A stretch of 64,000 bases of DNA from Escherichia phage vB_EcoM_phAPEC6: sequence record MK817115.1; one strand, written 5' to 3'. Below the pieces are notes generated by a model, which was not told the DNA's origin, ran no database searches, and worked only from the letters and a program-made list of their open reading frames with translations. Position numbers and translations under genes: made by a program. Shown in pieces: positions 3,874-63,492 of the stretch (within the stretch, counting starts at the first letter, position 1; every line of letters begins with the position of its first letter).

Positions 3874-4491
3874 TTATTTTTTAATTTTATCAATCATAGA
3901 AGGTGATACTTTTACATTGAATTCAGAATCAGGAAAATCTTTAGAAAATGAATCAATTTGTTCTTGTGAAAGTTCTTCTTTTTGTGGAAATAACATTTTA
4001 ACTAAATTTTTACCACATTCAATTGCTTCATCATACGACATAGTTTCCCATGTTCCATGCCAAGTACTAGGTTCATATTCTGTCAGTACAGAAATGAAAT
4101 CAATATCATCGGGTGTATACCAAACAGCATTTTGATTCCCTGATGGTGCTGATTGATTTTTACCTAATAAAACAATTGGCTTTTCATAAGGAATGTTAAA
4201 TATCAACCCAGATTCTAAGTTAAGAACAGTTTGAATAGATGAACCCTCCAATTTTGGAGTAATAGTACCATCCTTAAAGAAAATTTGTACATGACCCAAG
4301 AGCGGGGTTTCGTATGGTGTAAGTACATTTTCAGAAACTGATGTGGGTTTTACCGTTGTGAAAATGCCAGATGGGGTGACCATTAATTTATTATCAAAAT
4401 TCTGATAATGCAAGTCACTCTCTGCATCATAATGATAAATTTCTAGATTTGGTTGAGATAGTAGTAATTTTGCTAAATCATGAGATTTCAT
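3874..4491 (-). CDS. hypothetical protein, paralog of 2554..3138
   Basis: Track ORF extends to 4521 but that ATG lies inside the terminator hairpin; internal ATG at 4491 preceded by GGAG gives MKSHDLAKLLL... aligned with the paralog start. Confidence 0.5.
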   Translation of the reverse strand: MKSHDLAKLLLSQPNLEIYHYDAESDLHYQNFDNKLMVTPSGIFTTVKPTSVSENVLTPYETPLLGHVQIFFKDGTITPKLEGSSIQTVLNLESGLIFNIPYEKPIVLLGKNQSAPSGNQNAVWYTPDDIDFISVLTEYEPSTWHGTWETMSYDEAIECGKNLVKMLFPQKEELSQEQIDSFSKDFPDSEFNVKVSPSMIDKIKK

Positions 4492-4500
4492 TTTATTTCT

Positions 4501-4532
4501 CCAAAAGAAAAGGAGAGTCACAATGACTCTCC
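4501..4532 (-). terminator. rho-independent terminator (hairpin GGAGAGTCA/TGACTCTCC plus T-run on minus strand)
   Basis: 9-bp perfect stem 4512-4520/4524-4532, A-run 4504-4510 on plus = U-run after stem on minus; downstream of 4540..4980. Confidence 0.5.
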
Positions 4533-4539
4533 ATATATT

Positions 4540-4980
4540 TTATTGTAAAACTTTAAGTTTGTAAAGTGTTCCTTCAACAAAACTCATAATATCTTCTAAT
4601 GTGTTTACACTGCCGTAATCACCTGATTCTTCAAGCATATCATGAATTGCTCTACATTGCTCAACATATTCTTCAAGAATTGGTACACAATCTTCAATTG
4701 GTGTAAAACGATAACTATTACCAGTTCCAACTTGTAAAGCACCACGATTATTCATGATACCTTCAACAAATGCGTCTACATATTCTGGTAATTCTTTATA
4801 TAGTTCATCTAATTGTAAATGCTTTGTATAAAAATGACATTGTAAGTGCCAGTTATGTGCAGCAGAACTTAAAAACAAACTATTTTCAATAAAAGTTAAT
4901 AGTACTTCATCATACGAATTATCTTCTTCAGTACTTCCGATAAAGTCCATTACGTGTCGTAAATCATTAATATCTTCCAT
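4540..4980 (-). CDS. hypothetical protein
   Basis: 146 aa ORF. Confidence 0.45.
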   Translation of the reverse strand: MEDINDLRHVMDFIGSTEEDNSYDEVLLTFIENSLFLSSAAHNWHLQCHFYTKHLQLDELYKELPEYVDAFVEGIMNNRGALQVGTGNSYRFTPIEDCVPILEEYVEQCRAIHDMLEESGDYGSVNTLEDIMSFVEGTLYKLKVLQ

Positions 4981-5012
4981 AATATCTCTCCTTAGAGTTA
5001 TTCTCTTATTAT

Positions 5013-5441
5013 TTAGTTAATAATAAAGGTAATTTCAGGATTCATTTCAGAAACTGCATTGCGTTTACTTCTATCCCATAGTATTCTGTTATTATACAAA
5101 GAAGAATCACATACTACAAGTAAGCAATTTCTTAATCTACTTACAGTACTTTGATTATTTAAATCAGTTTCTGAAATAAAAAATACATTTTCAGGAACTA
5201 CTAAAGGAATAGATTTATCAAAAAACAAAACTACAATAGGTCTTGTTGTATGAACTGATTTAACGAAATCCAAAATACTATTATAAAAATTAGTTTCTTT
5301 AGTAATTACTGACGGATCTTTAATTCTTTTCAAATATTGCTGTGGTAATTGATGTTCGTCTTTTATCTGAAACTCAAAATATTCTTTGAATAACATTTGT
5401 GTTAATTCGGATTTATCGGATATTTTCGTTGTGTTACTCAT
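5013..5441 (-). CDS. hypothetical protein
   Basis: 142 aa ORF. Confidence 0.45.
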   Translation of the reverse strand: MSNTTKISDKSELTQMLFKEYFEFQIKDEHQLPQQYLKRIKDPSVITKETNFYNSILDFVKSVHTTRPIVVLFFDKSIPLVVPENVFFISETDLNNQSTVSRLRNCLLVVCDSSLYNNRILWDRSKRNAVSEMNPEITFIIN

Positions 5442-5526
5442 TCACTTCGTTCTCTCGTAACTCAAGAAGTCACTGCGTTTACTTCGTAAACTAGTTCCTT
5501 CTGAAAATGATAATGTACTTTAAAAA

Positions 5527-6096
5527 CTTGACGGGATTTGTTGAGGACTATTACATCCCCCCGCAGGGGAATGAAGGTAATAAAAAAGAGACAATTAAGT
5601 CTCTCTTGACGATGATGGCATCGGATATTATCGAATTGCGAATTTCTCAAATTTTGGACGGATCTTTCTTGTACCAAAATTTAGAGAGCGAAAGCGGGTT
5701 GCTCGGTTTCTCTCTATCGCAGTCATATGCAACGGTCGCTGGTCTTTTCATCAACAGCACTCAGTACTAACTCTATTCGATCAAAGTAGTACTTGTTCTC
5801 AAATTTTGGACGCAACTTTCTTGTAAAAATTGCGTCCGCTATCCTTGAACTCCCTTAGCAAATCTGGTAAGGTGCGAACCTTATACATCTATCTAGGAAC
5901 TCTCTGTATGCTTATCGGAGTTCTTTATACAGCCGTGTCGCCGTGATTCGTGGTCTTACATCGTGTTTGTTTGAATGCCAGTACTCTAACAGGTTTCTTC
6001 TGCTGTTCGCTACAACGGTAAAGCTCATCTATCCTTTACATTTTCAAGAGAAGTAGGTTCTCAGTGTCCATTTTTCAATGTCCGTTGTCATTTTCT
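5527..6096. ncRNA. candidate large structured non-coding element, copy A (paralog of 61208..61740)
   Basis: No conserved ORF; shares blocks with copy B (CATCCCCCCGCAGGGGA, GAAAGCGGGTTGCTC, GTTTCTCTCTATCGC, GCAACGGTCG, TGGTAAGGTGCGA, GGAGTTCTTTATACAGCCG, CTGCTGTTCG); hairpins with conserved stems and divergent loops; strand unresolved. Confidence 0.35.
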
Positions 6097-6103
6097 ATAT
6101 ACA

Positions 6104-6114
6104 TTATATCATTG
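6104..6114 (-). promoter_or_regulatory. extended -10 promoter-like motif TGATATAAT (minus strand), preceded by ATGGGACAT box
   Basis: Plus ATTATATCATT = minus AATGATATAAT; same 11-mer at 61748-61758 and TGATATAAT at 31238-31247. Confidence 0.3.
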
Positions 6115-6131
6115 GAACATATAATGTCCCA

Positions 6132-6530
6132 TTACATGTATACTTTTTTAAAATCCTTAGAACAACGATCAAAAATTGTGTTTATGAATTCAACATCTTC
6201 GATAATATTCGAATCGTTAGCAACATTTTCATTTCTTGTCGTGTTCCTATATGTGTGTTCAGGATGATTGTATACCACCTTGACTACATTATTTAGGTCT
6301 ATAAAATTTGACGTTTTTTGCGTATATGAAGCCTGAAGCTTGATGAGTTTACCATCATTCTCAAGATTGGTTTTATGAATTAGTTCTTCAATACCAGTTA
6401 AATGGCTATAGCTATCTTTTTCTTTTACAAAAGTAATAGTAACAAGAACTGCTTTCTCATCTCCCATATCGGAAATGTTTTTTACAGCACTGATAATTTC
6501 TAAGTTTGAAAAATCTAATTCTTTAAGCAT
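6132..6530 (-). CDS. hypothetical protein
   Basis: 132 aa ORF. Confidence 0.45.
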   Translation of the reverse strand: MLKELDFSNLEIISAVKNISDMGDEKAVLVTITFVKEKDSYSHLTGIEELIHKTNLENDGKLIKLQASYTQKTSNFIDLNNVVKVVYNHPEHTYRNTTRNENVANDSNIIEDVEFINTIFDRCSKDFKKVYM

Positions 6531-6531
6531 T

Positions 6532-6888
6532 TTACAAATATTTCCACAAAGTTCGATAAGTGATAATTTCTTCTCTGGTTACAGAAACTTCATTGCACTT
6601 AACACCATCAGTTTCATTACTGAATGGTTGTACTGGTCTATCTTCTGTTAAACCTCGTTCATAAGTACAATGATAAAACTTATTTGTACTCATGTCAAGA
6701 AATACGAGATCAAATTCTTCAGTCCATCTTCTGTGCCCTTTGCTTTCATTGCAGATGATTTTATATTTTACATCTGGTTTAAAAGTTTCAGTACTGTCAT
6801 CCCATGCACCATAGTCAGTATATTCATCATTTTCATCTAACTCTGCTAGATGCCACATTAATTGTGGTAAAAAGATTTTAGATTTCAT
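6532..6888 (-). CDS. hypothetical protein
   Basis: 118 aa ORF. Confidence 0.45.
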   Translation of the reverse strand: MKSKIFLPQLMWHLAELDENDEYTDYGAWDDSTETFKPDVKYKIICNESKGHRRWTEEFDLVFLDMSTNKFYHCTYERGLTEDRPVQPFSNETDGVKCNEVSVTREEIITYRTLWKYL

Positions 6889-6898
6889 TTATTTTCTC

Positions 6899-6929
6899 CA
6901 AAAAAAAGGACTTGAATACTCAAGTCCTT
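6899..6929 (-). terminator. rho-independent terminator
   Basis: Stem GGACTTGA/TCAAGTCC with loop ATAC, A-run on plus (U-run on minus) at 6901-6907; downstream of 6941..7597. Confidence 0.5.
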
Positions 6930-6940
6930 ATAATATCATA

Positions 6941-7597
6941 TCAATCATGTTTATTCAATTTCTTCTGTTCTTTTTTCAAAGCTTTCATATGACGACCAAA
7001 CTCTCGAACATGCCATAGATGATCAGTTTCCCATAATTCTTGACGTAACCTACGTTCTTCTAGTAGTTTCGACTTGTCAATGTTATTTTTCTTTTTTTGT
7101 ACATTAAAGAAATTATTCATATGTTCTTGGAGAAGATTACGACCTTTAACTTTCTCAAGAAACTCATCAACTGTTTCAGTTTTATTCGAACGTAGTTGAT
7201 TACATCTGGAGCACATAGTATTAAAGTTTGACTCTAAATCAGGTCCACCCTTAGATGCCAGATGATTATGGTCAACTGTCATTAAAACTTCATAAAGACC
7301 ACATACAGCATATACATTTAAATGTGGTTTACCATATACTGGATCAGAACATAATGAACGTTCAATGCGTACTTCAGTAGCTTCAATCCCACATGCCACG
7401 CATTTTGGATTCTTAACAAAAGTAAGAACTTTTTGTGGGAAATATCGAAAAGTAATACCATTTAAAGTGTAGCGTTTCATCTTAGTACTTCGTTGATTTA
7501 ATTCTTCAAGAAGTGATAATTTTGTCGTATAGTAAACATGATATTTGTTCATTTTATTCCTTGATATTGATTTTAATATCTTTACCTTGTAAATCAC
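6941..7597 (-). CDS. HNH-family endonuclease (free-standing, homing-endonuclease-like)
   Basis: 218 aa; Cys pair CVACG then DHNHLASKGGPDLESNFNTMCSRCN matching the HNH motif; bracketed by terminators. Confidence 0.55.
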   Translation of the reverse strand: MIYKVKILKSISRNKMNKYHVYYTTKLSLLEELNQRSTKMKRYTLNGITFRYFPQKVLTFVKNPKCVACGIEATEVRIERSLCSDPVYGKPHLNVYAVCGLYEVLMTVDHNHLASKGGPDLESNFNTMCSRCNQLRSNKTETVDEFLEKVKGRNLLQEHMNNFFNVQKKKNNIDKSKLLEERRLRQELWETDHLWHVREFGRHMKALKKEQKKLNKHD

Positions 7598-7862
7598 GAA
7601 TAGTTTTAATCAATGCGTCGTGTTTTAAAGCACATTCATTGTAGACTGCATCCCAACGAGTAAGTACTTTAAGAATTTCTGCACCATCATAACCTTTAAA
7701 ACCATTTTTGTCAATCATAATTTTTTGTGGTAGAGGTGTATCATCATCACATCTTTCTAACAGAATTTCTTGTTTAATTGGTGCGGGGGATTGTAGTTTT
7801 ACTTGCTCGGCACACCCACTTATAATTAAAAAAGAAATCATTGGAACTAATAATTTTTTCAT
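7554..7862 (-). CDS. outer-membrane spanin subunit (o-spanin lipoprotein)
   Basis: 102 aa; signal peptide with lipobox LIISGC; overlaps the upstream i-spanin-like gene, as in T4 pseT.3/pseT.2. Confidence 0.5.
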   Translation of the reverse strand: MKKLLVPMISFLIISGCAEQVKLQSPAPIKQEILLERCDDDTPLPQKIMIDKNGFKGYDGAEILKVLTRWDAVYNECALKHDALIKTIRDLQGKDIKINIKE

Positions 7863-8233
7863 TTGAATTTATTCCTCGCTGCTTGAGAATTTTGTTTTAG
7901 TTCATTCAGTACTTTTACACCATCTTCATCTAAACATACATTCTTATAAACTTCACGTTCTACAATAAAAGGAACCTTTGTTTCAATAACTTTAGCATTA
8001 TCTTCCATGATTTTTTTAGTTTCAAGGTAATTTTTTGCATTTTCTTGTTGCATTTTATCCAAGGCGGTATCAACTTTTTTAGCTATTTGTTGCTCTATGC
8101 TTTGTTGATATCCACTGTAATAAGTATTAGCTTCCCAACCAGCATAAGCTGAACCGCCAATTAATAATACAAAAGAAATTGGTTTCCAAAATGGAATAAG
8201 AATTTTTGAAACAATTATTTCTAACATACTCAT
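7859..8233 (-). CDS. inner-membrane spanin subunit (i-spanin)
   Basis: 124 aa; N-terminal TM helix then charged coiled-coil-like region; immediately upstream of and overlapping the lipoprotein gene. Confidence 0.5.
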   Translation of the reverse strand: MSMLEIIVSKILIPFWKPISFVLLIGGSAYAGWEANTYYSGYQQSIEQQIAKKVDTALDKMQQENAKNYLETKKIMEDNAKVIETKVPFIVEREVYKNVCLDEDGVKVLNELKQNSQAARNKFK

Positions 8234-8286
8234 AATAATATCTCCTATAGTTGATGATATTATTTAGAGTATACAATTGTATAGTT

Positions 8287-8706
8287 TTACAACATTTTTT
8301 GAATATGTTCTACTAGTTCATACAGCTTAGTTTCATTATTCTCGAACTTTTCATCAACTTCAACATTGAATTTTTCTTCTAGTTCCATTACCATTTCAAT
8401 CCAATCAAGCCAATCAAAATGGAATTTTTCTTCGACTTCCAATTTAGTAAGATTGAAGTTCGCTGATACATCATTCTCTGATGTATCACAATAACGAGTA
8501 GTGATGAATTTGACAATTTCTTTTTCAACATCGTTTAATTCACGAGTTTGATATTCGGGCTGAAGATACCACCACTCTCCCTTATTAATAGATTCCAATT
8601 CTTGTTTGATTTCATGCATTACTTTATAACGGTCAGTACTTTTATGAATAGAATTGACTTCTTGGTTCAATACATGTAGTGCATTTTTAATACGTTCATT
8701 TAACAT
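8287..8706 (-). CDS. acyl-carrier-protein-like protein lacking the phosphopantetheine serine
   Basis: C-terminus FDWLDWIEMVMELEEKFNVEVDEKFEN aligns with ACP helix II ([26 protein letters not shown]) but Ser is replaced by Trp. Confidence 0.4.
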   Translation of the reverse strand: MLNERIKNALHVLNQEVNSIHKSTDRYKVMHEIKQELESINKGEWWYLQPEYQTRELNDVEKEIVKFITTRYCDTSENDVSANFNLTKLEVEEKFHFDWLDWIEMVMELEEKFNVEVDEKFENNETKLYELVEHIQKML

Positions 8707-8718
8707 TTTATCACCTTA

Positions 8719-8750
8719 TAAAAAAAAGAGAACTCCATATGAAGTTCTCT
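8719..8750 (-). terminator. rho-independent terminator
   Basis: Stem AGAGAACT/AGTTCTCT, loop CCATATGA, A-run 8720-8727 on plus; downstream of 8782..11571. Confidence 0.5.
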
Positions 8751-8781
8751 GATTATACATAATTACTTTTTCTATGTCAAG

Positions 8782-11571
8782 TTATAAATCACGGAAACGA
8801 TTTGGTGTGTTTAAGCGGTACATTGAGTATAATCCCAATCCACGCATAATCTCACCTGCCCAGAAACCAAAAAACATACCATTATCAGTACCTTCTCTAA
8901 CTGCTGGACTCCATGAACCATTCATTGGTGAACCTGGATTTACAATAACATAATTCTTTTGAAGTTCGAGAACTAAGTTATCAGCGAGTGTTGTTAGACC
9001 TTCTATTTTACATCCAGCCAATCCAGCAGCACAAGCCCCAGCTAACCACAACCCACACATATGACCTGTAAAGTCCCAATCTGGACCTTCAACTGTGCCA
9101 TCTTTATTGAAGATTGTTGGTGAACGACCATCATTATCTTTTTGAAATTGAATTAAAAAGTGAATCCAATTCTCACAAAATTCAACAAGATCTGCTGGTG
9201 GTTCAATTCCTCTCTCTGCGAGTTCTTGCCATGCTCTGGCAGCCCCAAAGAACGCACGTGGTTCATACCCACTCCATGCTTGATCACCCCAATGTAGCAT
9301 AGTAAATGTATCTGGTTCACCATATTTTAAGTTATCCCAGCGGTTCCAAACATATGCTTGTGCACACGGACCAACAGTACCGAATTGTTGAGTAAACCAT
9401 GTTTGGGAATCTTTCATAAAGCTTAACATGTTTCCTAAGCGTGTGTTATCTACTGGCTGGTCTTTAAAACAATATATCACAGGATATTGATAACCTGGAT
9501 ACGGTAAACCACGCCATCCTGAATACTGGTTCGCATACGGGTCAGTGATGTTAGAAAATGGTATTGTTCCTGGTGTGTAATGCAATGAGTTTAACAAATA
9601 ATCCTTGATTACACAATCCCCTAACTGTGCAGTATATGGTGATTCACCTGCAATTGTTATTGAAAATGTCATAGTATAGTCATCACCGTCAGCATCCGTG
9701 TATAATTCTGGAATGTCATTAATACAATACCAATCAATTATTGCAGCAACACCATCTACTGGGGTTGTATCAGGTAAAATAGTAATATCTTCTAGTTCAC
9801 TATAAACTGGTGCATCTGGTCTTGGGTCAGAACTTGGATGATTTGGCTGATACCCAGATAAACGTAATGTATCGGAACTTAGTGTGATTGTAGTCCATTC
9901 CCCGTGTGTTGCAGGAATCATCCACCACCATCTCCAACCATTATCATCTACAATTCTTATATTGTAATCATCTTCATATGAACGATAGGTAAAAGATTTA
10001 ACTTCAGACTTATTTGTTGCTAATAGCCAAAATCCAATAACAGCACCATCATCTTCACCACAAACTAACTGATTAATGGTATCGCGGCGTGTAACTAATA
10101 TATCAGTACTATATATCATTTCGGACGTTGCTGCACCATAAGGAACAACAATTCTATTATCAGCAATTATATAAGGGGAACCATCTGCTTTCTTTTCTCT
10201 AACAAATGCACTTAAAGGTGTTAATGAATGTGTGATATTTTGGTCTTTACTTTCCGGTAAGCCACAACGATAACGAACAACATCATGGTCATTTTTTGTT
10301 TTTGACAATTCCAGTACTGGTTTAAATGATAACGGCTTACCATCATCACATACACCACCATAGTCTACAAGTAATTTAGAATCAGCATTGACCCTGAACC
10401 AAATAGCTTGTTGTTCCATAGTACTTTGTGCACTTTGGTCTTGCCTGATAGTAATATATCCTAGAGAATTTCTACCAAACTTAGCAATAGCATCACTAGG
10501 ATAAAAATATTCATAGGAAATACCATCAGTGAATGGTGTGGTTACAATTGTACTTTGTCTGAAAAATTTATCTCTGGAGTCAATATCACCATAAGCATAA
10601 CACGTTAGTAGTGAACATTTCCAACCCAAATAATGTTTTCTTTCTTTTGTTATTTTATATAACAAATAAGAAGCATCACTAAACCATAATTCTGCATCTG
10701 ATGCGTTATCAGCAAATTCCAAATCAATTGGAACATGAAGAGGGCGGTTGTGTTGCATTTCATTTCGTTGAATTATCACACCACCATATTCTACTGGTTG
10801 ACGATTTGCAAAATTTAATTTATATACACCATTAATTGTTGTATTCTTTAATTGAACAGTTCCTTTTTCAGATTCGTCAAAACCTTCTGCTAAAATATTA
10901 CCATCCCAGTCGATTTTTCTACCCATGAAATCGATAATCCAGTCAACATCATATTGTTCACCTGGTGTATCCCAATCAACACTACCATCTGGTAATAATG
11001 CTTTTACTGAAGCATTTATTTGGTTCCATGCTAACGCACCTTTGAATGCAAATGTCACTTTATCCAAGAACTGACCATAATATGGTGCACCATGTGGTAT
11101 TTTACATTGACCATTAGTAAATGTAAATTCTACTCCCTTGAAACCACCATGTGTGGGCCAGCCATCATCAGCTAAAGGCCAGTTAGCCAATATAGGTTCT
11201 TTGGCATTAACTATCCAGTTACATTGTAGTGGTGTAGGTGGATCTGGTAATTCACGTCCAGCATAAAAGTACTGATGATATGCGTCCCAATACCACTTTG
11301 CCTTATCTAAAAACATTGGATCATTTGTTGCCAGATACGCATAAATGTATCCTAAAATTAATAGACTTTGACCTTCTGTTGTCCCGTCACCGTTTGGTTG
11401 ACCTTCCATTGCAGAATAGTTAATAAAATGACGGTTGTTCGCCAAAACACCCTGATTATTCACCACATAATGTTGTACTGTTGGGTCTATTGTATCACCA
11501 GTATTTCTTTCAATAAATTTGTGATGCCCATAAAGAAGTTGTACAATATTATCAATATTATTGTTTAACAT
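8782..11571 (-). CDS. large virion-associated protein of unknown function
   Basis: 929 aa, Trp/Tyr/Gly-rich, lies in a cluster with tail-fiber genes; no catalytic motif recognised by eye. Confidence 0.5.
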   Translation of the reverse strand: MLNNNIDNIVQLLYGHHKFIERNTGDTIDPTVQHYVVNNQGVLANNRHFINYSAMEGQPNGDGTTEGQSLLILGYIYAYLATNDPMFLDKAKWYWDAYHQYFYAGRELPDPPTPLQCNWIVNAKEPILANWPLADDGWPTHGGFKGVEFTFTNGQCKIPHGAPYYGQFLDKVTFAFKGALAWNQINASVKALLPDGSVDWDTPGEQYDVDWIIDFMGRKIDWDGNILAEGFDESEKGTVQLKNTTINGVYKLNFANRQPVEYGGVIIQRNEMQHNRPLHVPIDLEFADNASDAELWFSDASYLLYKITKERKHYLGWKCSLLTCYAYGDIDSRDKFFRQSTIVTTPFTDGISYEYFYPSDAIAKFGRNSLGYITIRQDQSAQSTMEQQAIWFRVNADSKLLVDYGGVCDDGKPLSFKPVLELSKTKNDHDVVRYRCGLPESKDQNITHSLTPLSAFVREKKADGSPYIIADNRIVVPYGAATSEMIYSTDILVTRRDTINQLVCGEDDGAVIGFWLLATNKSEVKSFTYRSYEDDYNIRIVDDNGWRWWWMIPATHGEWTTITLSSDTLRLSGYQPNHPSSDPRPDAPVYSELEDITILPDTTPVDGVAAIIDWYCINDIPELYTDADGDDYTMTFSITIAGESPYTAQLGDCVIKDYLLNSLHYTPGTIPFSNITDPYANQYSGWRGLPYPGYQYPVIYCFKDQPVDNTRLGNMLSFMKDSQTWFTQQFGTVGPCAQAYVWNRWDNLKYGEPDTFTMLHWGDQAWSGYEPRAFFGAARAWQELAERGIEPPADLVEFCENWIHFLIQFQKDNDGRSPTIFNKDGTVEGPDWDFTGHMCGLWLAGACAAGLAGCKIEGLTTLADNLVLELQKNYVIVNPGSPMNGSWSPAVREGTDNGMFFGFWAGEIMRGLGLYSMYRLNTPNRFRDL

Positions 11572-21696: not shown

Positions 21697-22167
21697 CTAA
21701 AAATCTTTATTTTTATATAGTATTCTTTGATTATTTGAACCACGGAAAGGTAATTTTAAATTCTTTTCGGACTCAATAAACTTACCATCAACTAATACAT
21801 CTAAGTACTGAAGTATATCTTTAGCATGATTTTTCATAATCTCATCTAAAGTATACCCACTCCAGCACCAAATAGTTTTACTAGGATAAGTTTCTTTAAC
21901 TACTTTGCATAGATTTAAAACTTCATCTATATTCTTTTTCATTAATGGATCGCCGCCTAGAAGTGACAAACCACTAACATATGGTTTTTTTAGTTCCTGT
22001 AGTATAATCTCAACTGTTTCAGTACTGAACAATTGACCACTTCTGTAATCCCATGCTTCTTCATTGAAGCAACCATCACATCCGTGCGAACACCCACTAA
22101 CAAATAAAGAGCAGCGAACGCCCTCTCCATTTACTAAATCATCCTTGATTATCGTCTGGTAATTCAT
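21697..22167 (-). CDS. nrdG: anaerobic ribonucleotide reductase activating protein (radical SAM)
   Basis: 156 aa; CSHGCDGC cluster; adjacent to nrdD. Confidence 0.85.
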   Translation of the reverse strand: MNYQTIIKDDLVNGEGVRCSLFVSGCSHGCDGCFNEEAWDYRSGQLFSTETVEIILQELKKPYVSGLSLLGGDPLMKKNIDEVLNLCKVVKETYPSKTIWCWSGYTLDEIMKNHAKDILQYLDVLVDGKFIESEKNLKLPFRGSNNQRILYKNKDF

Positions 22168-31206: not shown

Positions 31207-31237
31207 TTTATATCTCCTTCTGTATTATGATAACAAC

Positions 31238-31271
31238 ATTATATCATGTATGGGACATTATGTCCCATACA
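31238..31271 (-). promoter_or_regulatory. perfect 12-bp palindrome abutting an extended -10 element (operator-promoter candidate)
   Basis: TGTATGGGACAT-T-ATGTCCCATACA at 31247..31271; minus-strand TGATATAAT at 31238..31247, about 30 nt upstream of ATG 31206 with GGAG RBS. Confidence 0.35.
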
Positions 31272-31274
31272 ATA

Positions 31275-32714
31275 TTACATATTTTCTTCAGCAAATTCTG
31301 CAAGTGGTGAACGAACAACACCTTCTAGTTCGATGACACGACAACCTGCCCAATCTTTAAACTTCTCAGTTACATATGTCAAACCACTGTTAACAGGACT
31401 AATAAACTTACTGTCAATCTGACTCAAGTTACCCATAATTACTACTTTACAGTTTAATCCTGCTCGTGTCAAGATTGTTTTGGCTTGTGCAGGTGTAATG
31501 TTTTGGAATTCATCAACTACTAGAATAGTGTTGGTGAATGAACGTCCACGTACAAAGTTTAGTGCTTTAAATTGAATAACATTACGTTTCATAATCTCTT
31601 CAATACTACCTTGAGGGTTAGCATCATCTTTATGAAGAAACTCTAACGCGTCAATTGCGGCTCCACAGAATGGAATCACTTTTTCTGCTTCTGAACCTGG
31701 CAAGAAACCAATATCTTCAAACTGTGAGTCTTGAGTTTTAGAGAAGATGATTCGGTCGTATTTACGTTTTTCCAGTACTAATTCTAATGCAGTAGCAATC
31801 GTAATTAGTGTTTTACCAGTACCAGCAGAACCTAGCAGTACTGTTAGATGTACATCAGGATCGAGAATACTGTTGATGGCGAGTGCTTGTTGGATATTCT
31901 TTGCTTTAATATCCCATACTTTAGCACGTAAAGCTACTGATTGTCCAATATCTTGGAATACCAAAATATCTTCTGGTGTTAGTGTTCCATCATCTTCCTC
32001 AATTGCTGATTGACCTTCGTACACAAATAATACGTCTGCATCATCATATAGATAATCACCGATGCATAGATTTTGTGGGAGCAAATGCTCAATCAAGCTT
32101 TTGGAAATGTAATGATACAAACGACGACCAACTTGTTCGGATTGAATATTAGTATTGGTTAAGTTGCTGTATACTTCCCAAAAATTGATTTCCAAATGGT
32201 GTTGACCAATGTGAATCAAATCACTATCACCAATAACAATATCATGGCGATAATCTTGTACCTCGACACCATAACTTAGTGCTTTGATACGCATGTTGAT
32301 ATCACGAGTTACCAGTACTGATTCTGTTGCTAAAGCTACCAGAATGATTTTATCATCAGGTACTGTGCTTTTGAGAAGGGTTTGAACTTTCTCTTCTGAA
32401 CCTTTAGTACGAATTAGTGCTTCAGCTTCTTCGTTTGTAATAACAAACAATTTGCTATCAGGATTCATATTGGTATGAACATCAGCAATATTAACACCAG
32501 TACTACTAATCTCATCATGTGATGCATCTGCAATAATTGCTTCAATGTTACGAATAGCAACACGAGCATCGCGTGAAACATCTACATTACGACTCTTAAT
32601 TGAATCCAATTCTTCCAGTACTGTAAATGGTAGAATGATTGCAGCACCATCAAAAGCAATAGATGCATTAGGGTCAGATAGTAGTACGTTTGTGTCAATT
32701 GTATATTTTTTCAT
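31275..32714 (-). CDS. phoH: PhoH-like ATPase with N-terminal PIN domain
   Basis: 479 aa; Walker A LGSAGTGKT, Walker B VVDEFQN; N-terminal PIN-like acidic residues. Confidence 0.8.
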   Translation of the reverse strand: MKKYTIDTNVLLSDPNASIAFDGAAIILPFTVLEELDSIKSRNVDVSRDARVAIRNIEAIIADASHDEISSTGVNIADVHTNMNPDSKLFVITNEEAEALIRTKGSEEKVQTLLKSTVPDDKIILVALATESVLVTRDINMRIKALSYGVEVQDYRHDIVIGDSDLIHIGQHHLEINFWEVYSNLTNTNIQSEQVGRRLYHYISKSLIEHLLPQNLCIGDYLYDDADVLFVYEGQSAIEEDDGTLTPEDILVFQDIGQSVALRAKVWDIKAKNIQQALAINSILDPDVHLTVLLGSAGTGKTLITIATALELVLEKRKYDRIIFSKTQDSQFEDIGFLPGSEAEKVIPFCGAAIDALEFLHKDDANPQGSIEEIMKRNVIQFKALNFVRGRSFTNTILVVDEFQNITPAQAKTILTRAGLNCKVVIMGNLSQIDSKFISPVNSGLTYVTEKFKDWAGCRVIELEGVVRSPLAEFAEENM

Positions 32715-58925: not shown

Positions 58926-59205
58926 CGTAATGCTCCTTAACAATATAAAAGTAGTTGCTGTTATTGTCAAAAAAGATAACCATCCCTTTATAGACATTTA
59001 CACCAATTTTGATTTCACATATGTTATTTGATTTACTCGCTTCAGTCAATAACATTTTGTGCTCTTTACTGAAAGTGTGGAACAGTGGTTTGACATGCCA
59101 CATTTCGATACCATCCAGTACTGAAAATTTTTCACTAAATTTAATCATTGATTCTTGTAAAAAATATCCTGTAAGATTTATTTCATCACACATGCAAGTT
59201 TCCAA
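58906..59205 (-). CDS. hypothetical protein
   Basis: 99 aa ORF. Confidence 0.4.
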   Translation of the reverse strand: METCMCDEINLTGYFLQESMIKFSEKFSVLDGIEMWHVKPLFHTFSKEHKMLLTEASKSNNICEIKIGVNVYKGMVIFFDNNSNYFYIVKEHYVDKYKY

Positions 59206-60549: not shown

Positions 60550-61170
60550 TTAGAGACAGTTGTGTACTATCTTATCAAAAGTACTACTGTCAATGTTATA
60601 TTCATATAAAAATTTAAAATGTGAACCGTAACGCATCATCAGATTAAACTCTTCTTCAGTATTGAACTTGTAATCATGAATAGTCTCAGGGGTACATTTT
60701 AAACCCAAGAACTCTATAATTTCAGATGTTACATCATATCCTGAATTGAAGTATTTAACCCAAACACATTTTCCTTGTGGGTTGTATTTTCTATATTCTC
60801 CTTCTAGTTCTCCTTTAATAATATGAGCCTTAACACTTATTGAATTATTACTATATCTTTCTTCAAAATAATTACCATACTGGGCTTTTGATATTGTTGG
60901 TTTTTGAGTAGGAAGTAATTTAACTGAAGTCACTTCAATTCCATTTTGTAATTCCTTTATATAAGAAATGCATCCTTTTTCTTTAATAACCACATATCCA
61001 GTAAAGATATCTTCGTCTTGTGATTGATTAATGCAATCATCAAAATTCAAAGTTTTATAAGTAACAGTTTTTTCTTTTCTAATAAATGCCATCATTATTC
61101 CTATGGAAACATCAATGAATATACGTGACGTTGATTGCATCAACATCAGTAGAATTATCATGCTACGCAT
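60550..61170 (-). CDS. hypothetical protein
   Basis: 206 aa track ORF; N-terminal 26 codons hydrophobic, true start may be ATG near 61092. Confidence 0.4.
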   Translation of the reverse strand: MRSMIILLMLMQSTSRIFIDVSIGIMMAFIRKEKTVTYKTLNFDDCINQSQDEDIFTGYVVIKEKGCISYIKELQNGIEVTSVKLLPTQKPTISKAQYGNYFEERYSNNSISVKAHIIKGELEGEYRKYNPQGKCVWVKYFNSGYDVTSEIIEFLGLKCTPETIHDYKFNTEEEFNLMMRYGSHFKFLYEYNIDSSTFDKIVHNCL

Positions 61171-61207
61171 GTCTAATTCTACAAGTACTATTTTCTTTTA
61201 ATTAATA

Positions 61208-61740
61208 TTGACGGGGTTTGCTTGAGCATATTTCATCCCCCCGCAGGGGAAAGAACAAAAAAATTTGACGCTGGTGGCCTTCACATAGTTCATATCACGA
61301 ATTCTCTTACGAGACGAAAGCGGGTTGCTCTGTTTCTCTCTATCGCGGTTCTTGTAGCAACGGTCGTCGGTCTTAAACATCCCGACACATAATACAAATA
61401 CCATATGACCAGTACTTGTATTTGATTTCACAAAATTTGGACGCAACTATATTGTATAATTCCGACCGCATATTTCTTATGAAATCTCCCTTAGATAATT
61501 GGTAAGGTGCGATCCTTATATGTCTATCGAGGAACTCTCTTTATCCTATTGGAGTTCTTTATACAGCCGCATTGCCGTGAGTGGTTCAAACTATGCCATC
61601 ATCTAACGGGTTTCATCTGCTGTTCGTACTGAAAGGACTACTCATCTACCCTCTACATTTTCGAGTGGATTAGGCTTTTAATCATTTCCTTATGGGAACC
61701 TTTCAGGATTAAAAAAAGGTGACTAACATATTATGTTGTC
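61208..61740. ncRNA. candidate large structured non-coding element, copy B (paralog of 5527..6096)
   Basis: Same conserved blocks and hairpins as copy A; no conserved ORF; strand unresolved. Confidence 0.35.
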
Positions 61741-61743
61741 ACC
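61711..61743 (-). terminator. rho-independent terminator (long bulged hairpin)
   Basis: GGTGACTAACAT-ATT-ATGTTGTCACC, A-run 61711-61717 on plus. Confidence 0.45.
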
Positions 61744-61747
61744 TTAT

Positions 61748-61758
61748 ATTATATCATT
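61748..61758 (-). promoter_or_regulatory. extended -10 promoter-like motif TGATATAAT (minus strand)
   Basis: Plus ATTATATCATT identical to 6104-6114; directly followed on minus by the hairpin (PeSL-like arrangement). Confidence 0.3.
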
Positions 61759-61773
61759 AACTTATCATTTGTC

Positions 61774-62661
61774 TCAGTTATATTCGGTTTTTTCTGTGAA
61801 ATTTGTTAGTATATCAACACTAAAACTTCGAATAACCTCAATCCTGCTTGGCATGAAACGATGTTTATTTTTAATATACAACTCATCATCTTCAATAAAA
61901 GACGTAAAAATAAATGTCATATCTTCACGTGGAATTTGTAAAATATCACACATTTCATTTGCCGATGCTACTGGTGAATCGTTGTAGTACTGAGAGTATG
62001 CACTAGATTGGCGACCGATTATAATAGAATTTCTGATTAGAAAATTACTACAGTACTGAAAATCTTTGTAGTACTTTTCAATAATGTACGGCATAAGTGC
62101 TTCTTTCACGTCTTCATAACCATTAGTACTATCAATTGCTATACAGTAATCTTCACGTTCTTTTTTCTCATGATGGTAATCATAAACATACTCAAAGAAT
62201 GAATTTTTATTTAATGAATCATTTAAACCAACTGACCCACTATAGTATGATTTTCTATCATTCATTCGATCATCTGGGCATGATGCATACATAGAAGTGT
62301 CATGTGATGATGTACCAATATAAATTTTCTTAGTAATATGATTATACGCTATGTAATCATAATCTTGAACTCCAGTCAGCATTAACTGGAACATTAAATC
62401 ATCAGGAACATCAATTAACGGGTACTCAAACTTCGAATATCTACTGCGGCAGAAGTTCTTTTCAAATGCTCGGTATGCGATAAAATCTTTTAGATTTTTA
62501 CAAGATTCATGCTCATGAGCACTACTGCTACGTACATTGACATTAGTCGATGTGCAATATCCATCCGAATCTTCGGTGAAGTTACCAGCATAATCCTTAT
62601 TGTAGTCAACGATTAGATAAAGTTTCATACATCTCCAGACAAAAAAAGGACGAGATAACAA
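61774..62661 (-). CDS. hypothetical protein
   Basis: 295 aa ORF. Confidence 0.5.
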   Translation of the reverse strand: MLSRPFFVWRCMKLYLIVDYNKDYAGNFTEDSDGYCTSTNVNVRSSSAHEHESCKNLKDFIAYRAFEKNFCRSRYSKFEYPLIDVPDDLMFQLMLTGVQDYDYIAYNHITKKIYIGTSSHDTSMYASCPDDRMNDRKSYYSGSVGLNDSLNKNSFFEYVYDYHHEKKEREDYCIAIDSTNGYEDVKEALMPYIIEKYYKDFQYCSNFLIRNSIIIGRQSSAYSQYYNDSPVASANEMCDILQIPREDMTFIFTSFIEDDELYIKNKHRFMPSRIEVIRSFSVDILTNFTEKTEYN

Positions 62662-62679: not shown

Positions 62680-62985
62680 TTAGTGACTTGCCCAGCAGTA
62701 AACAGGACGTAGATTTTCCATTGGATTTACTTCAGGCTTCAGTACTGTTACACGTACTTCATATGGAGTTCCATCTGCATGATGGAATGTTTCATAATGA
62801 ATACTTTCAATAAATGTTTCGTATTCTTCTTGTGAACGTGAACGTACTGCTGATGAATATTTCTTCTTAGAATCTGCTTTAAGTGTAACACTGACTAGTT
62901 CTGATTCCTCACCTTCTTCAAGTTTGTTGAAATCGAACTCTGGTACACCTTCAAACATATCAAATTTCATTCCATTGTCTTCCAT
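62680..62985 (-). CDS. hypothetical protein
   Basis: 101 aa ORF; terminator-like hairpin downstream at 62650-62678. Confidence 0.45.
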   Translation of the reverse strand: MEDNGMKFDMFEGVPEFDFNKLEEGEESELVSVTLKADSKKKYSSAVRSRSQEEYETFIESIHYETFHHADGTPYEVRVTVLKPEVNPMENLRPVYCWASH

Positions 62986-63034: not shown

Positions 63035-63421
63035 TTAGATTGTGTCATACTGTAGTGTTCCGTGACGGAATTTTTCAAGTCGTGCTAGAACTTCTTTTCG
63101 TTCAACAATTTCTGGAACATCTTCTTGTAGTTGATCACAAACTTCAACAATGAAGTCCCAATCACTCTCACAACTTTGTCGTACCGCCTCAATTGTTTTC
63201 CAATCAGTACTGATATCACCATCAGCATTTTGATATACAGGCCAAACTTTTCCATAATCAGCAATGGATTTGTCATTTAGAATACGAATGGCATTGAAAA
63301 TCTGACCAGTACTGAAGTGTTTTGTATTCTTCATATCTTCTAAACAGCATAGCTTTGGCTCACCTTTTACTTCAATGAGTAAAACACCACCAATTGCTTT
63401 TAGGACTGAACTTGTATTCAT
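63035..63421 (-). CDS. hypothetical protein
   Basis: 128 aa ORF. Confidence 0.45.
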   Translation of the reverse strand: MNTSSVLKAIGGVLLIEVKGEPKLCCLEDMKNTKHFSTGQIFNAIRILNDKSIADYGKVWPVYQNADGDISTDWKTIEAVRQSCESDWDFIVEVCDQLQEDVPEIVERKEVLARLEKFRHGTLQYDTI

Positions 63422-63492
63422 CTATATCTCCGTTATCAAAAAAAGATGTGAACATTATATCACAAGAATCTAATATGTTCACATTATTTTCA

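Follow-up and report, generated by a model that had tools for sequence, protein, structure and literature searches.

The locus and its paralogous copy

The DNA considered here is a stretch of 64,000 nucleotides (nt) of Escherichia phage vB_EcoM_phAPEC6 (sequence record MK817115.1), hereafter the window, and all coordinates count from its first letter. Between the open reading frames (ORFs) 60550..61170 and 61774..62661, in a neighborhood in which all genes are on the minus strand, lies a repeated element, copy B, which a preliminary description of the sequence had delimited as 61208-61758; its sister, copy A, is situated at 5442..6130. From comparative sequence analysis we firmly conclude that copy B encodes, behind its own promoter, a structured non-coding RNA (ncRNA) of large size. 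The findings behind this are compensatory base pairs beyond those of the controls, a promoter at the 5′ edge of every distinct full-length copy, a terminator behind one class of paralogs (the D-type), and ORFs that are not conserved. The segment 61170-61790 is 100% identical by blastn to Escherichia phage 121Q (KM507819, 192728-193348, in the opposite orientation), a jumbo myovirus of the genus Asteriusvirus with a genome of 348.5 kb, while the surroundings of copy A (3901-10415) show only 96.6-97.5% identity to it. Thus, with 100% identity around copy B and about 97% around copy A, the source is a close relative of 121Q or a mosaic.

The preliminary description held that the two copies share conserved blocks, that copy B lacks an internal duplication seen in copy A, and that the element is independent of its coding neighbors, all of which we could confirm. 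The copies are linked by the direct-repeat families D1, D6, D7, D9 and D14 (joining 5528-5951 with 61208-61585), and their pairwise alignment has a mean column identity of 77% with several indels (blastn E 7e-49). The AAATTTTGGACG block is present once in copy B (61427-61456) and twice in copy A (5644-5673 and 5796-5825), and the proteins flanking A are unrelated to those flanking B, every blastp E-value being above 3.

The element stands out by its G+C content (0.404, against 0.333 in the window at large and 0.28-0.33 in the genes on either side). Each reading frame of copy B is interrupted by 10-14 stop codons, the longest ORFs in 29 homologs reach 27-77 amino acids without conservation, and only two of the ten indels between A and B are multiples of three; together, these stop codons, ORF lengths and indel phases rule out a protein-coding gene or a pseudogene. 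Many GenBank records nevertheless place one to six “hypothetical protein” ORFs over the locus, with up to six in several Escherichia and Salmonella phages; these are probably spurious calls on top of the RNA gene. Recognizing the RNA hence corrects the annotation of a locus that is otherwise left blank or covered by such calls. ORF245 of phage RaK2 (RaK2_00245, 2487-2693 of the extracted locus L136) likewise overlaps the RaK2 homolog of the RNA.

A conserved, pseudoknotted fold

The conserved structured core of copy B, which runs on the minus strand from helix P1 to the repeat R2 (61208..61706), matches the family profile with an nhmmer E-value of 1e-122. At least 13 helices make up its fold, and three of these take part in pseudoknots. 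The large conserved body that the preliminary description saw attached to a promoter and stem-loop is real, but its nature had been missed: it is a structured RNA gene, of a family with four or five copies per genome. That description had made its case depend on structural conservation beyond primary sequence identity, and this is present. RNAalifold predicts 66 pairs from 17 copies, 33 of them with compensatory double changes, and 63 pairs from 29 copies, of which 30 have such changes. Across 12 curated helices (56 pairs in the MAFFT alignment A4), 99.6% of the cells hold standard pairs, as against 82.9 +/- 0.6% after column shuffling and 39-49% when one partner is slid by 1-3 columns. Changes on both sides are seen at 37 of the 56 pairs, compared with 5-11 in the slid controls. 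The covariation score of 0.488 exceeds the 0.177 of shuffled alignments and was reached by none of 500 shuffles, shuffle statistics that are optimistic because the 12 scored helices were picked from the same alignment; this choice weighs less on the slid controls and on the RNAalifold predictions. Two of the three pseudoknots emerged from an all-against-all covariation scan.

The core opens with P1 (61629..61706, minus strand), in which CUGAAAGG at 61706-61699 pairs with CCUUUCAG at 61636-61629. The 3′ strand of P1 lies in the loop of a 3-bp hairpin, GUA/UAC (61641-61639 / 61628-61626), and thereby creates the third pseudoknot. P1 is misaligned in A4 and was checked separately: a perfect complement of 7-9 bp is found in 28 of the 29 copies and comes in more than 10 sequence variants, including CUGAAAGG/CCUUUCAG, ACAACGG/CCGUUGU and CUGAUUGA/UCAAUCAG. 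The GNA/UN′C pair covaries too (UA in 16 copies, AU in 10 and CG in three).

Downstream of P1, the 5′ domain (61532..61623, minus strand) comprises the helix ACAGC/GCUGU (61623-61619 / 61567-61563; double changes at four of five pairs), the helix CCGU/ACGG (61609-61606 / 61578-61575; one of four) and the hairpin GAACUC/GAGUUC (61557-61552 / 61537-61532; five of six). The 3′ domain (61289..61422, minus strand) is organized around a long-range helix (61409-61403 / 61295-61289), which is crossed by the arms of a hairpin (61422-61419 / 61394-61391) in one pseudoknot. Further helices pair 61387-61384 with 61368-61365, 61347-61343 with 61300-61296, 61340-61336 with 61320-61316 and 61313-61311 with 61306-61304, and GUUGC/GCAAC (61361-61357 / 61328-61324) forms another pseudoknot. 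In this domain, the pairs with double changes in helices 5-11 amount to 6/7, 3/4, 3/4, 3/5, 4/5, 2/5 and 3/3, respectively.

The helices are separated by long invariant single-stranded blocks such as UAAGGGAG, GAAACCCGUUAG and CGACCGUUG; the first of these (61486..61493, minus strand) is identical in 29 of 29 aligned copies, and it also served as the anchor of the collection scan. Pairs in which G-U alternates with A-U or G-C recur, for instance at alignment pairs 485:506, 477:561 and 276:291. This frequent G-U alternation identifies the minus strand of the window as the functional one, in agreement with the promoter TGATATAAT, and the earlier reading of the element on this strand stands. A 28-nt sub-domain, CAAGAAAGUUGCGUCCAAAAUUUGAGAA, behaves like a movable peripheral domain: it occupies one position in copy B, another, inside a hairpin loop, in the paralogs of the L020 type, both positions in copy A and neither in copy D.

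Several other pairings and motifs were considered and set aside. RNAalifold proposes that the 3′ tail UCYCGUC pairs with GGGA/GAC or UGA, but the columns in question are invariant or unconstrained (G:U 23, G:C 4, G:G 1, G:A 1). A pairing of the repeats R1 and R2 with the 5′ strand of P1 is contradicted by the fact that P1 covaries with its local partner while R1 and R2 stay constant. Finally, the segment between the two parts of a hammerhead-like motif (CAGAUGAG ... GAAAC) is the covarying strand of P1, and no hammerhead model matches.

The promoter and the upstream edge

The extended -10 element of copy B, TGATATAAT (61748..61756, minus strand), has an equivalent in all 64 full-length members of the family. 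It is preceded, across a 16-nt spacer, by the -35-like hexamer GAGACA (61770..61775, minus strand), and the promoter scan, with TATAAT as the -10 hexamer, gives 10 of 12 matches; with a TG before this hexamer, AATGATATAAT on the minus strand (61758-61748) is the top promoter-like site of the region. The form of the element at the 5′ edge of the 64 distinct copies is TGNTATAAT in 59 and TGCTATACT in five. In the window as a whole, TGNTATAAT occurs 17 times against 9.05 expected, 15 of these being on the coding strand, and a G(G/A)GACA box is found 16-17 nt upstream of most of these sites, which yields the window-wide consensus G(G/A)GACA-N16-17-TGNTATAAT. As the same consensus appears at other sites of the window, the RNA genes can be taken to use the ordinary sigma-70-type promoter of the phage, the type also seen in its other promoters of early appearance. 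In many copies P1 starts 13-14 nt past the -10 element; with P1 so close behind it, the 5′ end of the RNA is probably the transcription start itself.

Immediately after the promoter, copy B has a 5′ hairpin (61745-61716) with a U7 run (61717-61711), together covering 61711..61745 on the minus strand. This bulged 30-nt hairpin is unusually stable (-13.9 kcal/mol, z -4.6, with none of 200 shuffles as stable), and its stem covaries among B-type orthologs (GGACAGUA../GGACGAUG..); a consensus terminator scan made no call here because the stem is bulged. The sequence of minus-strand promoter, hairpin and U-run at the high-coordinate edge is thus as the preliminary description had it. Its comparison with the promoter early stem-loop (PeSL) cassettes of T4-type phages holds as far as the edge itself resembles such promoter/stem-loop cassettes, but fails for the element, since a hairpin and U-run directly after the promoter are confined to B-type orthologs and such cassettes also precede ordinary genes. 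In the other paralogs the placement differs: copy C has a terminator hairpin before the promoter, the hairpin of copy A lies over the -35 box and copy D has none. Being present in a single paralog class, the cassette borders the RNA gene but does not belong to the core of the family, and the PeSL-like hairpin is accessory to the RNA family. We conclude that it is a generic promoter/terminator insulator of the phage that adjoins copy B by chance. It may end the transcript of the upstream gene, and its stem-loop may protect the 5′ end of the RNA.

PeSL-type cassettes in front of ordinary genes are seen on the minus strand at 63410-63470 and 31225-31292. At the former (site 63462), ATGTGAACAT and ATGTTCACAT enclose a TGATATAAT promoter, followed by a T9 run, and at the latter (site 31246) a hairpin TATGGGACAT/ATGTCCCATA, corresponding to inverted repeat I14, extends over the -35 box.

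The 3′ module, its extension and the downstream gene

At its 3′ end, the core of copy B carries a compact module (61208..61274, minus strand) that consists of the repeat R1 (CCAGCGUCAA, 61274-61265), a U7 run (61263-61257), the hairpin UUUCCCC-UGC-GGGGGGAUGAAA (61252-61231) and the repeat R2 (ACCCCGUCAA, 61217-61208). The hairpin (helix 12) varies only from C-G to U-G. R1 and R2 are 10-nt direct repeats of the form AUC-N-CGUCAR on either side of it, and they change identically, not in a complementary fashion. Both read UGUCA in two separate lineages and CUUCA in RaK2, and N is the same in the two repeats of most copies (U/U, A/A, G/G or C/C), while the 121Q type has G/C. This concerted change might reflect a pairing partner that both have in common, such as the UUGAC of the 3′ extension, a site at which the same protein or RNase acts, or a duplication like that of target sites. 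R1 itself falls within a local hairpin, GACGA...UCGUC.

Conservation does not stop at 61208, where the preliminary description had placed the limit of the element, but continues for about 100 nt, to about 61105, as a 3′ extension (61105..61207, minus strand). In copy B this extension contains a helix GUAGAAUU/AAUUCUAC (61182-61175 / 61156-61149) around the hairpin CAUGC-GUA-GCAUG (61171-61159), then a second hairpin, GUUGAU-GCA-AUCAAC (61144-61130), and has a local folding energy of -29.7 kcal/mol. A like layout, spanning about 100-150 nt downstream of CGUCAR, recurs in most of 54 distinct tails, paralogs with unrelated flanks included. It consists of a short block of conserved sequence, an outer helix (GAAUU...AAUUC) enclosing a C-GNA-G triloop hairpin and, just before the Shine–Dalgarno (SD) sequence of the next gene, a second GNA-loop hairpin flanked by UUGAC...GGCAA. 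Pairing in the extension was judged by this recurrence of the layout and not by a formal covariation score. Its UUGAC is complementary to the GUCAA of R1 and R2, and RaK2 has UUGAA together with UUCAA, which hints that R1/R2 may pair with the extension.

The extension bears on the start of the downstream gene, gene 416 of 121Q. Residues 54-205 of the long ORF align with residues 20-171 of GAP32_067 (blastp E 3e-30), and a probable SD sequence, TAGGAAT (61103-61097, minus strand), precedes an ATG at 61095. From this ortholog alignment and the SD sequence, the ORF given as 60550..61170 probably starts at 61095; the N-terminus as annotated, from 61170 in the ORF or from the equivalent of 61161 in 121Q gene 416, overlaps the 3′ extension of the RNA. 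The D-type copies are antisense to both of their neighbors, and in several of them (GAP32, CBB and related metagenomic copies) the extension is followed by a hairpin and U terminator, which defines a stand-alone transcription unit with an estimated length of roughly 730 nt. For copy B, the length is about 500 nt for the core (P1 to R2), about 535 nt from the predicted start and about 640 nt with the 3′ extension.

Paralogs and their distribution among jumbo phages

By blastn, the element is found at 271 places in 61 phage records, with four or five per genome, in phages of Escherichia, Salmonella, Erwinia, Yersinia, Xanthomonas, Serratia, Cronobacter, Pectobacterium and Klebsiella. By scanning IMG/VR and metagenomes for motifs and then applying nhmmer, 64 distinct full-length copies were gathered from phages and metagenomic contigs; the first two collection patterns recovered a single paralog class, and the final set stems from a looser pattern. 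Membership in the family is judged throughout by nhmmer profiles and not by a covariance model. Phage 121Q has four co-oriented copies, of which A and B are in the window, C is known from the IMG/VR locus L003 only, and D is placed between the endonuclease VII gene and gene 595, both on the other strand. Copy B is syntenic in Asteriusvirus and Mimasvirus, where its flanks are orthologs of GAP32_066 and GAP32_067 beside a Dam methyltransferase gene. A divergent homolog is encoded in RaK2 (E 2e-36) and K64-1 just downstream of a sigma-factor gene. The paralogs have diverged to 66-77% identity. Neither the window nor the surroundings of 28 of the 29 loci scanned contain a tRNA or tmRNA gene.

Copy A (5442..6130, minus strand; nhmmer E 6e-115 to the family profile) represents the same RNA gene. 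In it, the hairpin over the -35 box is at 6130-6114, TGATATAAT at 6111-6103 and P1 at 6088-6082 / 6018-6012; the sub-domain occurs twice (5823-5796 and 5671-5644); R1 (5615-5606) is followed by a terminator-like hairpin with a U6 run (5605-5582), the 3′ hairpin (5576-5554), R2 (5537-5528) and a GNA-loop hairpin (5491-5477). The inserted hairpin of this copy has a folding energy of -14.7 kcal/mol (z -4.9).

One paralog class (L020, L123, L028 and L082) lies directly upstream of a gene whose product starts with M(I/S)..(D/N)R(A/S)IG(A/S)LVGLA, and may be an ADP-ribosylglycohydrolase, which it resembles. A DarT and ADP-ribosylglycohydrolase pair is also encoded about 4-6 kb from the RNA on a bacterial island in Silvania, described below, and the match between these two neighborhoods is perhaps a coincidence.

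Relatives on bacterial integrative islands

Full-length homologs are rare in bacteria, being present in two of 5426 complete E. coli genomes. In E. coli LR-29-1 (L137, NZ_AP027515 3470139-3488515), the RNA, with its own TGATATAAT promoter, is at 9417-8837 of the extracted locus (nhmmer E 6e-115), within an island of about 10.5 kb inserted between ybaA and ffs. This island codes for a tyrosine integrase split by an IS3 element, a resolvase, several hypothetical proteins and a candidate defense system, PDC-M45 (DuOB, DUF488, DUF4326). At the DNA level it shares with the phages the 546-nt RNA core only, which is 80.6% identical to the copy of Serratia phage BF/Eneladusvirus. A scan of one bacterial genome per species added Silvania hatchlandensis (L140, RNA at 8292-7772), Enterobacteriaceae bacterium RIT714 and a 2.8-kb contig of a metagenome-assembled genome.

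Clustering of the ORFs of the bacterial loci together with eight metagenomic loci (L088, L096, L097, L100, L102, L103, L117 and L119) revealed a recurrent order in the direction of the RNA: an integrase (large serine or tyrosine), the RNA, a CI-like S24/helix-turn-helix (HTH) repressor on the opposite strand, an HTH_35 Cro-like protein, a 286-residue membrane protein, an LprI-like protein and a resolvase. The cargo is of a defense type, for example DarT with an ADP-ribosylglycohydrolase. When the proteins flanking the RNA in the E. coli island were compared by tblastn with loci that were mostly of phages and metagenomes, only the resolvase and the membrane protein recurred, and only in island-type loci. 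The RNA gene alone is thus shared, without phage protein genes; it is an autonomous module that has passed between the jumbo phages and integrative elements of small size. Its deep, universal and multi-copy presence in the phage clade suggests that the phages are the older home. The RNA-bearing islands look like satellites or defense islands, and they may be satellites of jumbo phages or defenses against them.

Relation to described RNAs and cassettes

A cmscan of both strands of the whole window against Rfam 15, whose models include GOLLD, ROOL, OLE, HEARO, group I and II introns, RNase P, tmRNA, 6S RNA and riboswitches, gave no match at the gathering thresholds. With the threshold relaxed to E <= 10 for 61100-61850, six matches (E 0.16-8.2) were to unrelated small-RNA models and fell on the promoter/hairpin or outside the conserved body. 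Likewise, full-text literature searches, which did not cover subscription journals, found no description of the jumbo-phage RNA. The RNA represents a large structured class of jumbo phages that had not been described before and that has rare relatives on enterobacterial islands.

The closest kind of RNA is represented by GOLLD and ROOL, which are phage or prophage ncRNAs of roughly 580-800+ nt with multi-pseudoknot folds established from covariation and variable or dispensable internal regions; they have no known protein partner, form RNA-only nanocages and are usually found near tRNA islands, and the expression of GOLLD rises during phage-induced lysis (PMC12286853). The present RNA resembles them in its size range, its phage association and its ornate pseudoknotted fold. 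It differs in sequence and fold, in having no tRNA linkage, in being present four or five times per genome, with an extended -10 promoter for every copy, and in residing in virulent jumbo phages of Enterobacterales. It is a member of neither class.

In the PeSLs of T4-type phages, a strong early promoter of sigma-70-like type is paired with a stem-loop at which transcription from upstream stops; these cassettes are intergenic and repeated in the early region. Their stem-loop mostly occupies the spacer that separates the -35 from the -10 box or else overlies the -10 box, and their last part is the SD sequence and ATG of the next ORF (PMC2839356, PMC4122927). The edge of copy B and the sites 63462 and 31246 share with them the combination of a near-consensus sigma-70-like promoter and a stem-loop. 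Their geometry departs from this arrangement, as the hairpin of copy B is downstream of the -10 box, that of copy A overlaps the -35 box, and the arms at site 63462 enclose the promoter. Moreover, PeSLs have a conserved length of about 100 bp, whereas the cassette of copy B leads into about 600 nt of conserved non-coding sequence before an SD sequence and ATG are reached (61103-61095).

Another conceivable parallel is with the ColE1 RNA II and the transcripts of the T4 origins oriF and oriG, where a transcript of about 550 nt, driven by a sigma-70 or phage promoter, folds and, together with a G-rich segment in ColE1, determines an R-loop. The invariant G6 run of the present RNA and its dispersed co-oriented copies fit this superficially. 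Its structural conservation is, however, far more elaborate than that of these transcripts, those of the T4 origins having no conserved fold.

The related jumbo phage PA5oct expresses RNAs of 236-619 nt from ORF-free intergenic regions (ncRNA001-004, MK797984), two of which each account for 1.2-5.1% of the phage reads at three time points (PMC7318152). A search of ncRNA002 and ncRNA004 with the family profile (nhmmer with filters off, E <= 10) detected no similarity. As for type III toxin–antitoxin systems with a ToxI-like RNA and for the ncRNAs of retrons or DRT systems, no tandem array is reported in the element, and neither reverse transcriptase nor ToxN-like domains were detected in the neighboring proteins that were searched; the proteins flanking the copies in the window, which carry no functional annotation in 121Q, were not part of the Pfam scan.

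A probable stand-alone RNA and the alternatives to it

We regard it as reasonably probable that the product of the locus is a stand-alone, trans-acting large structured RNA that is expressed early. The host RNA polymerase would transcribe it early in infection from a start a few nucleotides before P1, which in B-type copies would follow a 5′ hairpin that also terminates the upstream gene. The folded RNA would then act in trans, as a ribonucleoprotein (RNP) or as an RNA-only assembly, with several gene copies supplying a high dosage, and its target would be a process of the host or of a rival element. Action in trans is favored by the unrelated neighbors of the paralogs, by the D class with its antisense placement and own terminator, by the recurrence of the RNA alone in islands and by the several copies behind strong-looking promoters. 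An ornate pseudoknotted fold with invariant loops is what would be expected if the RNA were a ribozyme, served as the scaffold of an RNP or assembled without protein, and the location in phages and mobile islands points to a role in takeover or inter-element conflict.

A number of observations weigh against this proposal. The start site, 3′ end, abundance and stability of the RNA are all inferred, and the shuffle statistics share the optimism already mentioned for helices picked from their own alignment. Taken as a single sequence, copy B does not fold with unusual stability (z -1.3). Given the null result of the nhmmer search, homology to the long ncRNAs of PA5oct is unsupported, and these furnish an analogy only. 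A terminator-like hairpin with a U6-7 run, itself covarying, intervenes between R1 and the 3′ hairpin in 13 of the 29 copies, those of A, D and E. coli included, and such a structure ahead of a conserved 3′ module is awkward for a single full-length RNA. All copies have the same orientation in every genome from which several were recovered, a regularity that would fit a genome-directional, DNA-linked role too. Lastly, since the 3′ extension ends at the SD sequence of a same-strand gene in most paralogs, the RNA could form the beginning of an mRNA and exert its effect in cis.

This last point leads to an alternative that we consider unlikely, namely that the element is a giant cis-acting 5′ leader, which would alter the polymerase that transcribes it or the transcript itself, through processive antitermination in the manner of the HK022 put RNA or by stabilizing or activating the mRNA, such that transcription from a few strong early promoters reads through many promoter/terminator cassettes to the downstream genes. 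The early region is indeed dense with promoter-plus-terminator cassettes, and the extension stops right before a same-strand SD sequence and AUG in most copies. A same-strand gene follows 43 surveyed phage copies (31 are co-directional with the genes on both sides and 12 have too little upstream DNA to tell), and in 13 of the 29 copies terminator-like hairpins with U runs, located within the element or immediately behind it, are followed by sequence that is nonetheless conserved. Such a leader is, however, difficult to reconcile with the paralog class (121Q D, L067 of GAP32, L050 of CBB and others) whose members are flanked on both sides by genes of the opposite strand and have a terminator of their own, or with the islands, where the RNA converges on the repressor gene. 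Nor is there a consistent downstream function, the proteins encoded downstream of A and B being unrelated, and a length of 550-730 nt with three pseudoknots is far above that of known RNA antiterminators, which measure about 70-120 nt. We give a distinctly low probability to an RNA-primed replication origin, at which the folded transcript would form a persistent R-loop that primes DNA synthesis as in ColE1 RNA II or T4 oriF/oriG, and a copy of which would allow satellite-like islands to be replicated by a helper phage. Four or five dispersed, co-oriented copies per 350-kb genome, a strong promoter about 550 nt upstream of the invariant G6 run (GGGGGGAUGAAA) and the small C-GNA-G triloop hairpins downstream, which resemble the stable d(GCGNAGC) mini-hairpins reported at origins of single-strand phages, would all be in keeping with it. 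So would the RNase H, UvsW-like helicase and T4-like replication proteins encoded by the phage and the lack of a recognizable replication gene in the RNA-bearing islands. Yet compensatory changes over the whole 500 nt, three pseudoknots and invariant loops are more than priming is known to need. Further, neither an AT-rich unwinding element nor DNA conserved outside the RNA came to light, no promoter for an antisense regulator scored well, and the cumulative GC skew, in itself uninformative on this point, is monotonic over the window, without a turn at copy A or B.

On the islands, the RNA has the integrase on one side and a divergent CI-like/Cro-like switch on the other and converges on the repressor gene, an arrangement that invites comparison with immunity or regulatory RNAs such as the P4 CI RNA or the P1 c4 RNA. 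In such a scheme a processed part of the RNA would pair with repeated targets (R1, R2 and their relatives) to control the element's own transcription, and the phage copies would interfere with this control or mimic it. The identical changes in R1 and R2 and a putative pairing of UUGAC with their complementary GUCAA, both altered in RaK2 (CUUCAA/UUGAA), are in its favor. However, no repressor switch is known in the phages of this clade, which are virulent, and a short antisense interaction would leave most of the conserved structure unexplained, so that we hold this explanation to be highly improbable. Hardly credible, in our assessment, is a purely DNA-level repeat with a functionless RNA, whether a dispersed cassette for recombination or shuffling (an enlarged PeSL) or a mobile, selfish insertion. 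Its appeal comes from the dispersal among unrelated flanking genes, the PeSL-like cassette at the edge, the sub-domain found at alternative positions or twice, the concerted evolution of R1 and R2 like that of duplicated target sites, and the horizontal transfer into bacterial islands. Against these stands the synteny of copy B between Asteriusvirus and Mimasvirus at about 70% identity, which marks the copies as long established rather than newly inserted; neither terminal inverted repeats nor a transposase accompany them. Moreover, paralogs that are 66-77% identical keep 99.6% of their pairs through double changes and G-U intermediates valid on one strand, a strand-specific conservation of pairs that selection on duplex DNA would not yield.

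A more tentative reading, possible though short of probable, is that this RNA is a machine deployed in conflicts between mobile elements and hosts, forming a new large ornate class common to an entire clade of jumbo phages and to small satellite-like islands of their hosts. A self-assembling RNA-only complex or RNP might, as one possibility, capture or disable a factor of the host or of a rival element, and the island copy might either exploit the phage, by satellite hijack, or counter it, as a decoy. The RNA gene beside an integrase and a CI/Cro-like switch points to an interaction at the RNA level between jumbo phages and satellite-like or defense islands; we know of no satellite or RNA-based mechanism for this group of jumbo phages. 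Large, highly structured RNA classes are rare and newly found ones are few. To our knowledge, each of the known large RNAs (RNase P, group I/II introns, OLE, GOLLD, ROOL and HEARO/omega RNA) has turned out to be a catalyst, a guide or a striking assembly. The present one is also easy to study, as it is encoded by culturable jumbo phages of E. coli, Salmonella, Erwinia, Yersinia and Klebsiella, which are already candidates for therapy.

A frequent palindrome in the window

Apart from the RNA genes, the window is rich in the 8-bp palindrome CAGTACTG, which occurs 43 times in the 64 kb against 0.74 expected and a largest count of three in shuffles, for instance at 268-275, 22020-22027, 59116-59123 and 62740-62747. 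The hexamer AGTACT is also abundant, with 182 occurrences in the window against about 22 expected, as estimated from base composition. The CAGTACTG sites are mostly within genes, 91-5302 bp apart, with weakly T-rich upstream and A-rich downstream flanks, and may be recognition sites for a DNA-level function of the phage. GUAC/AGUACU is present in the stems of many copies of the RNA.

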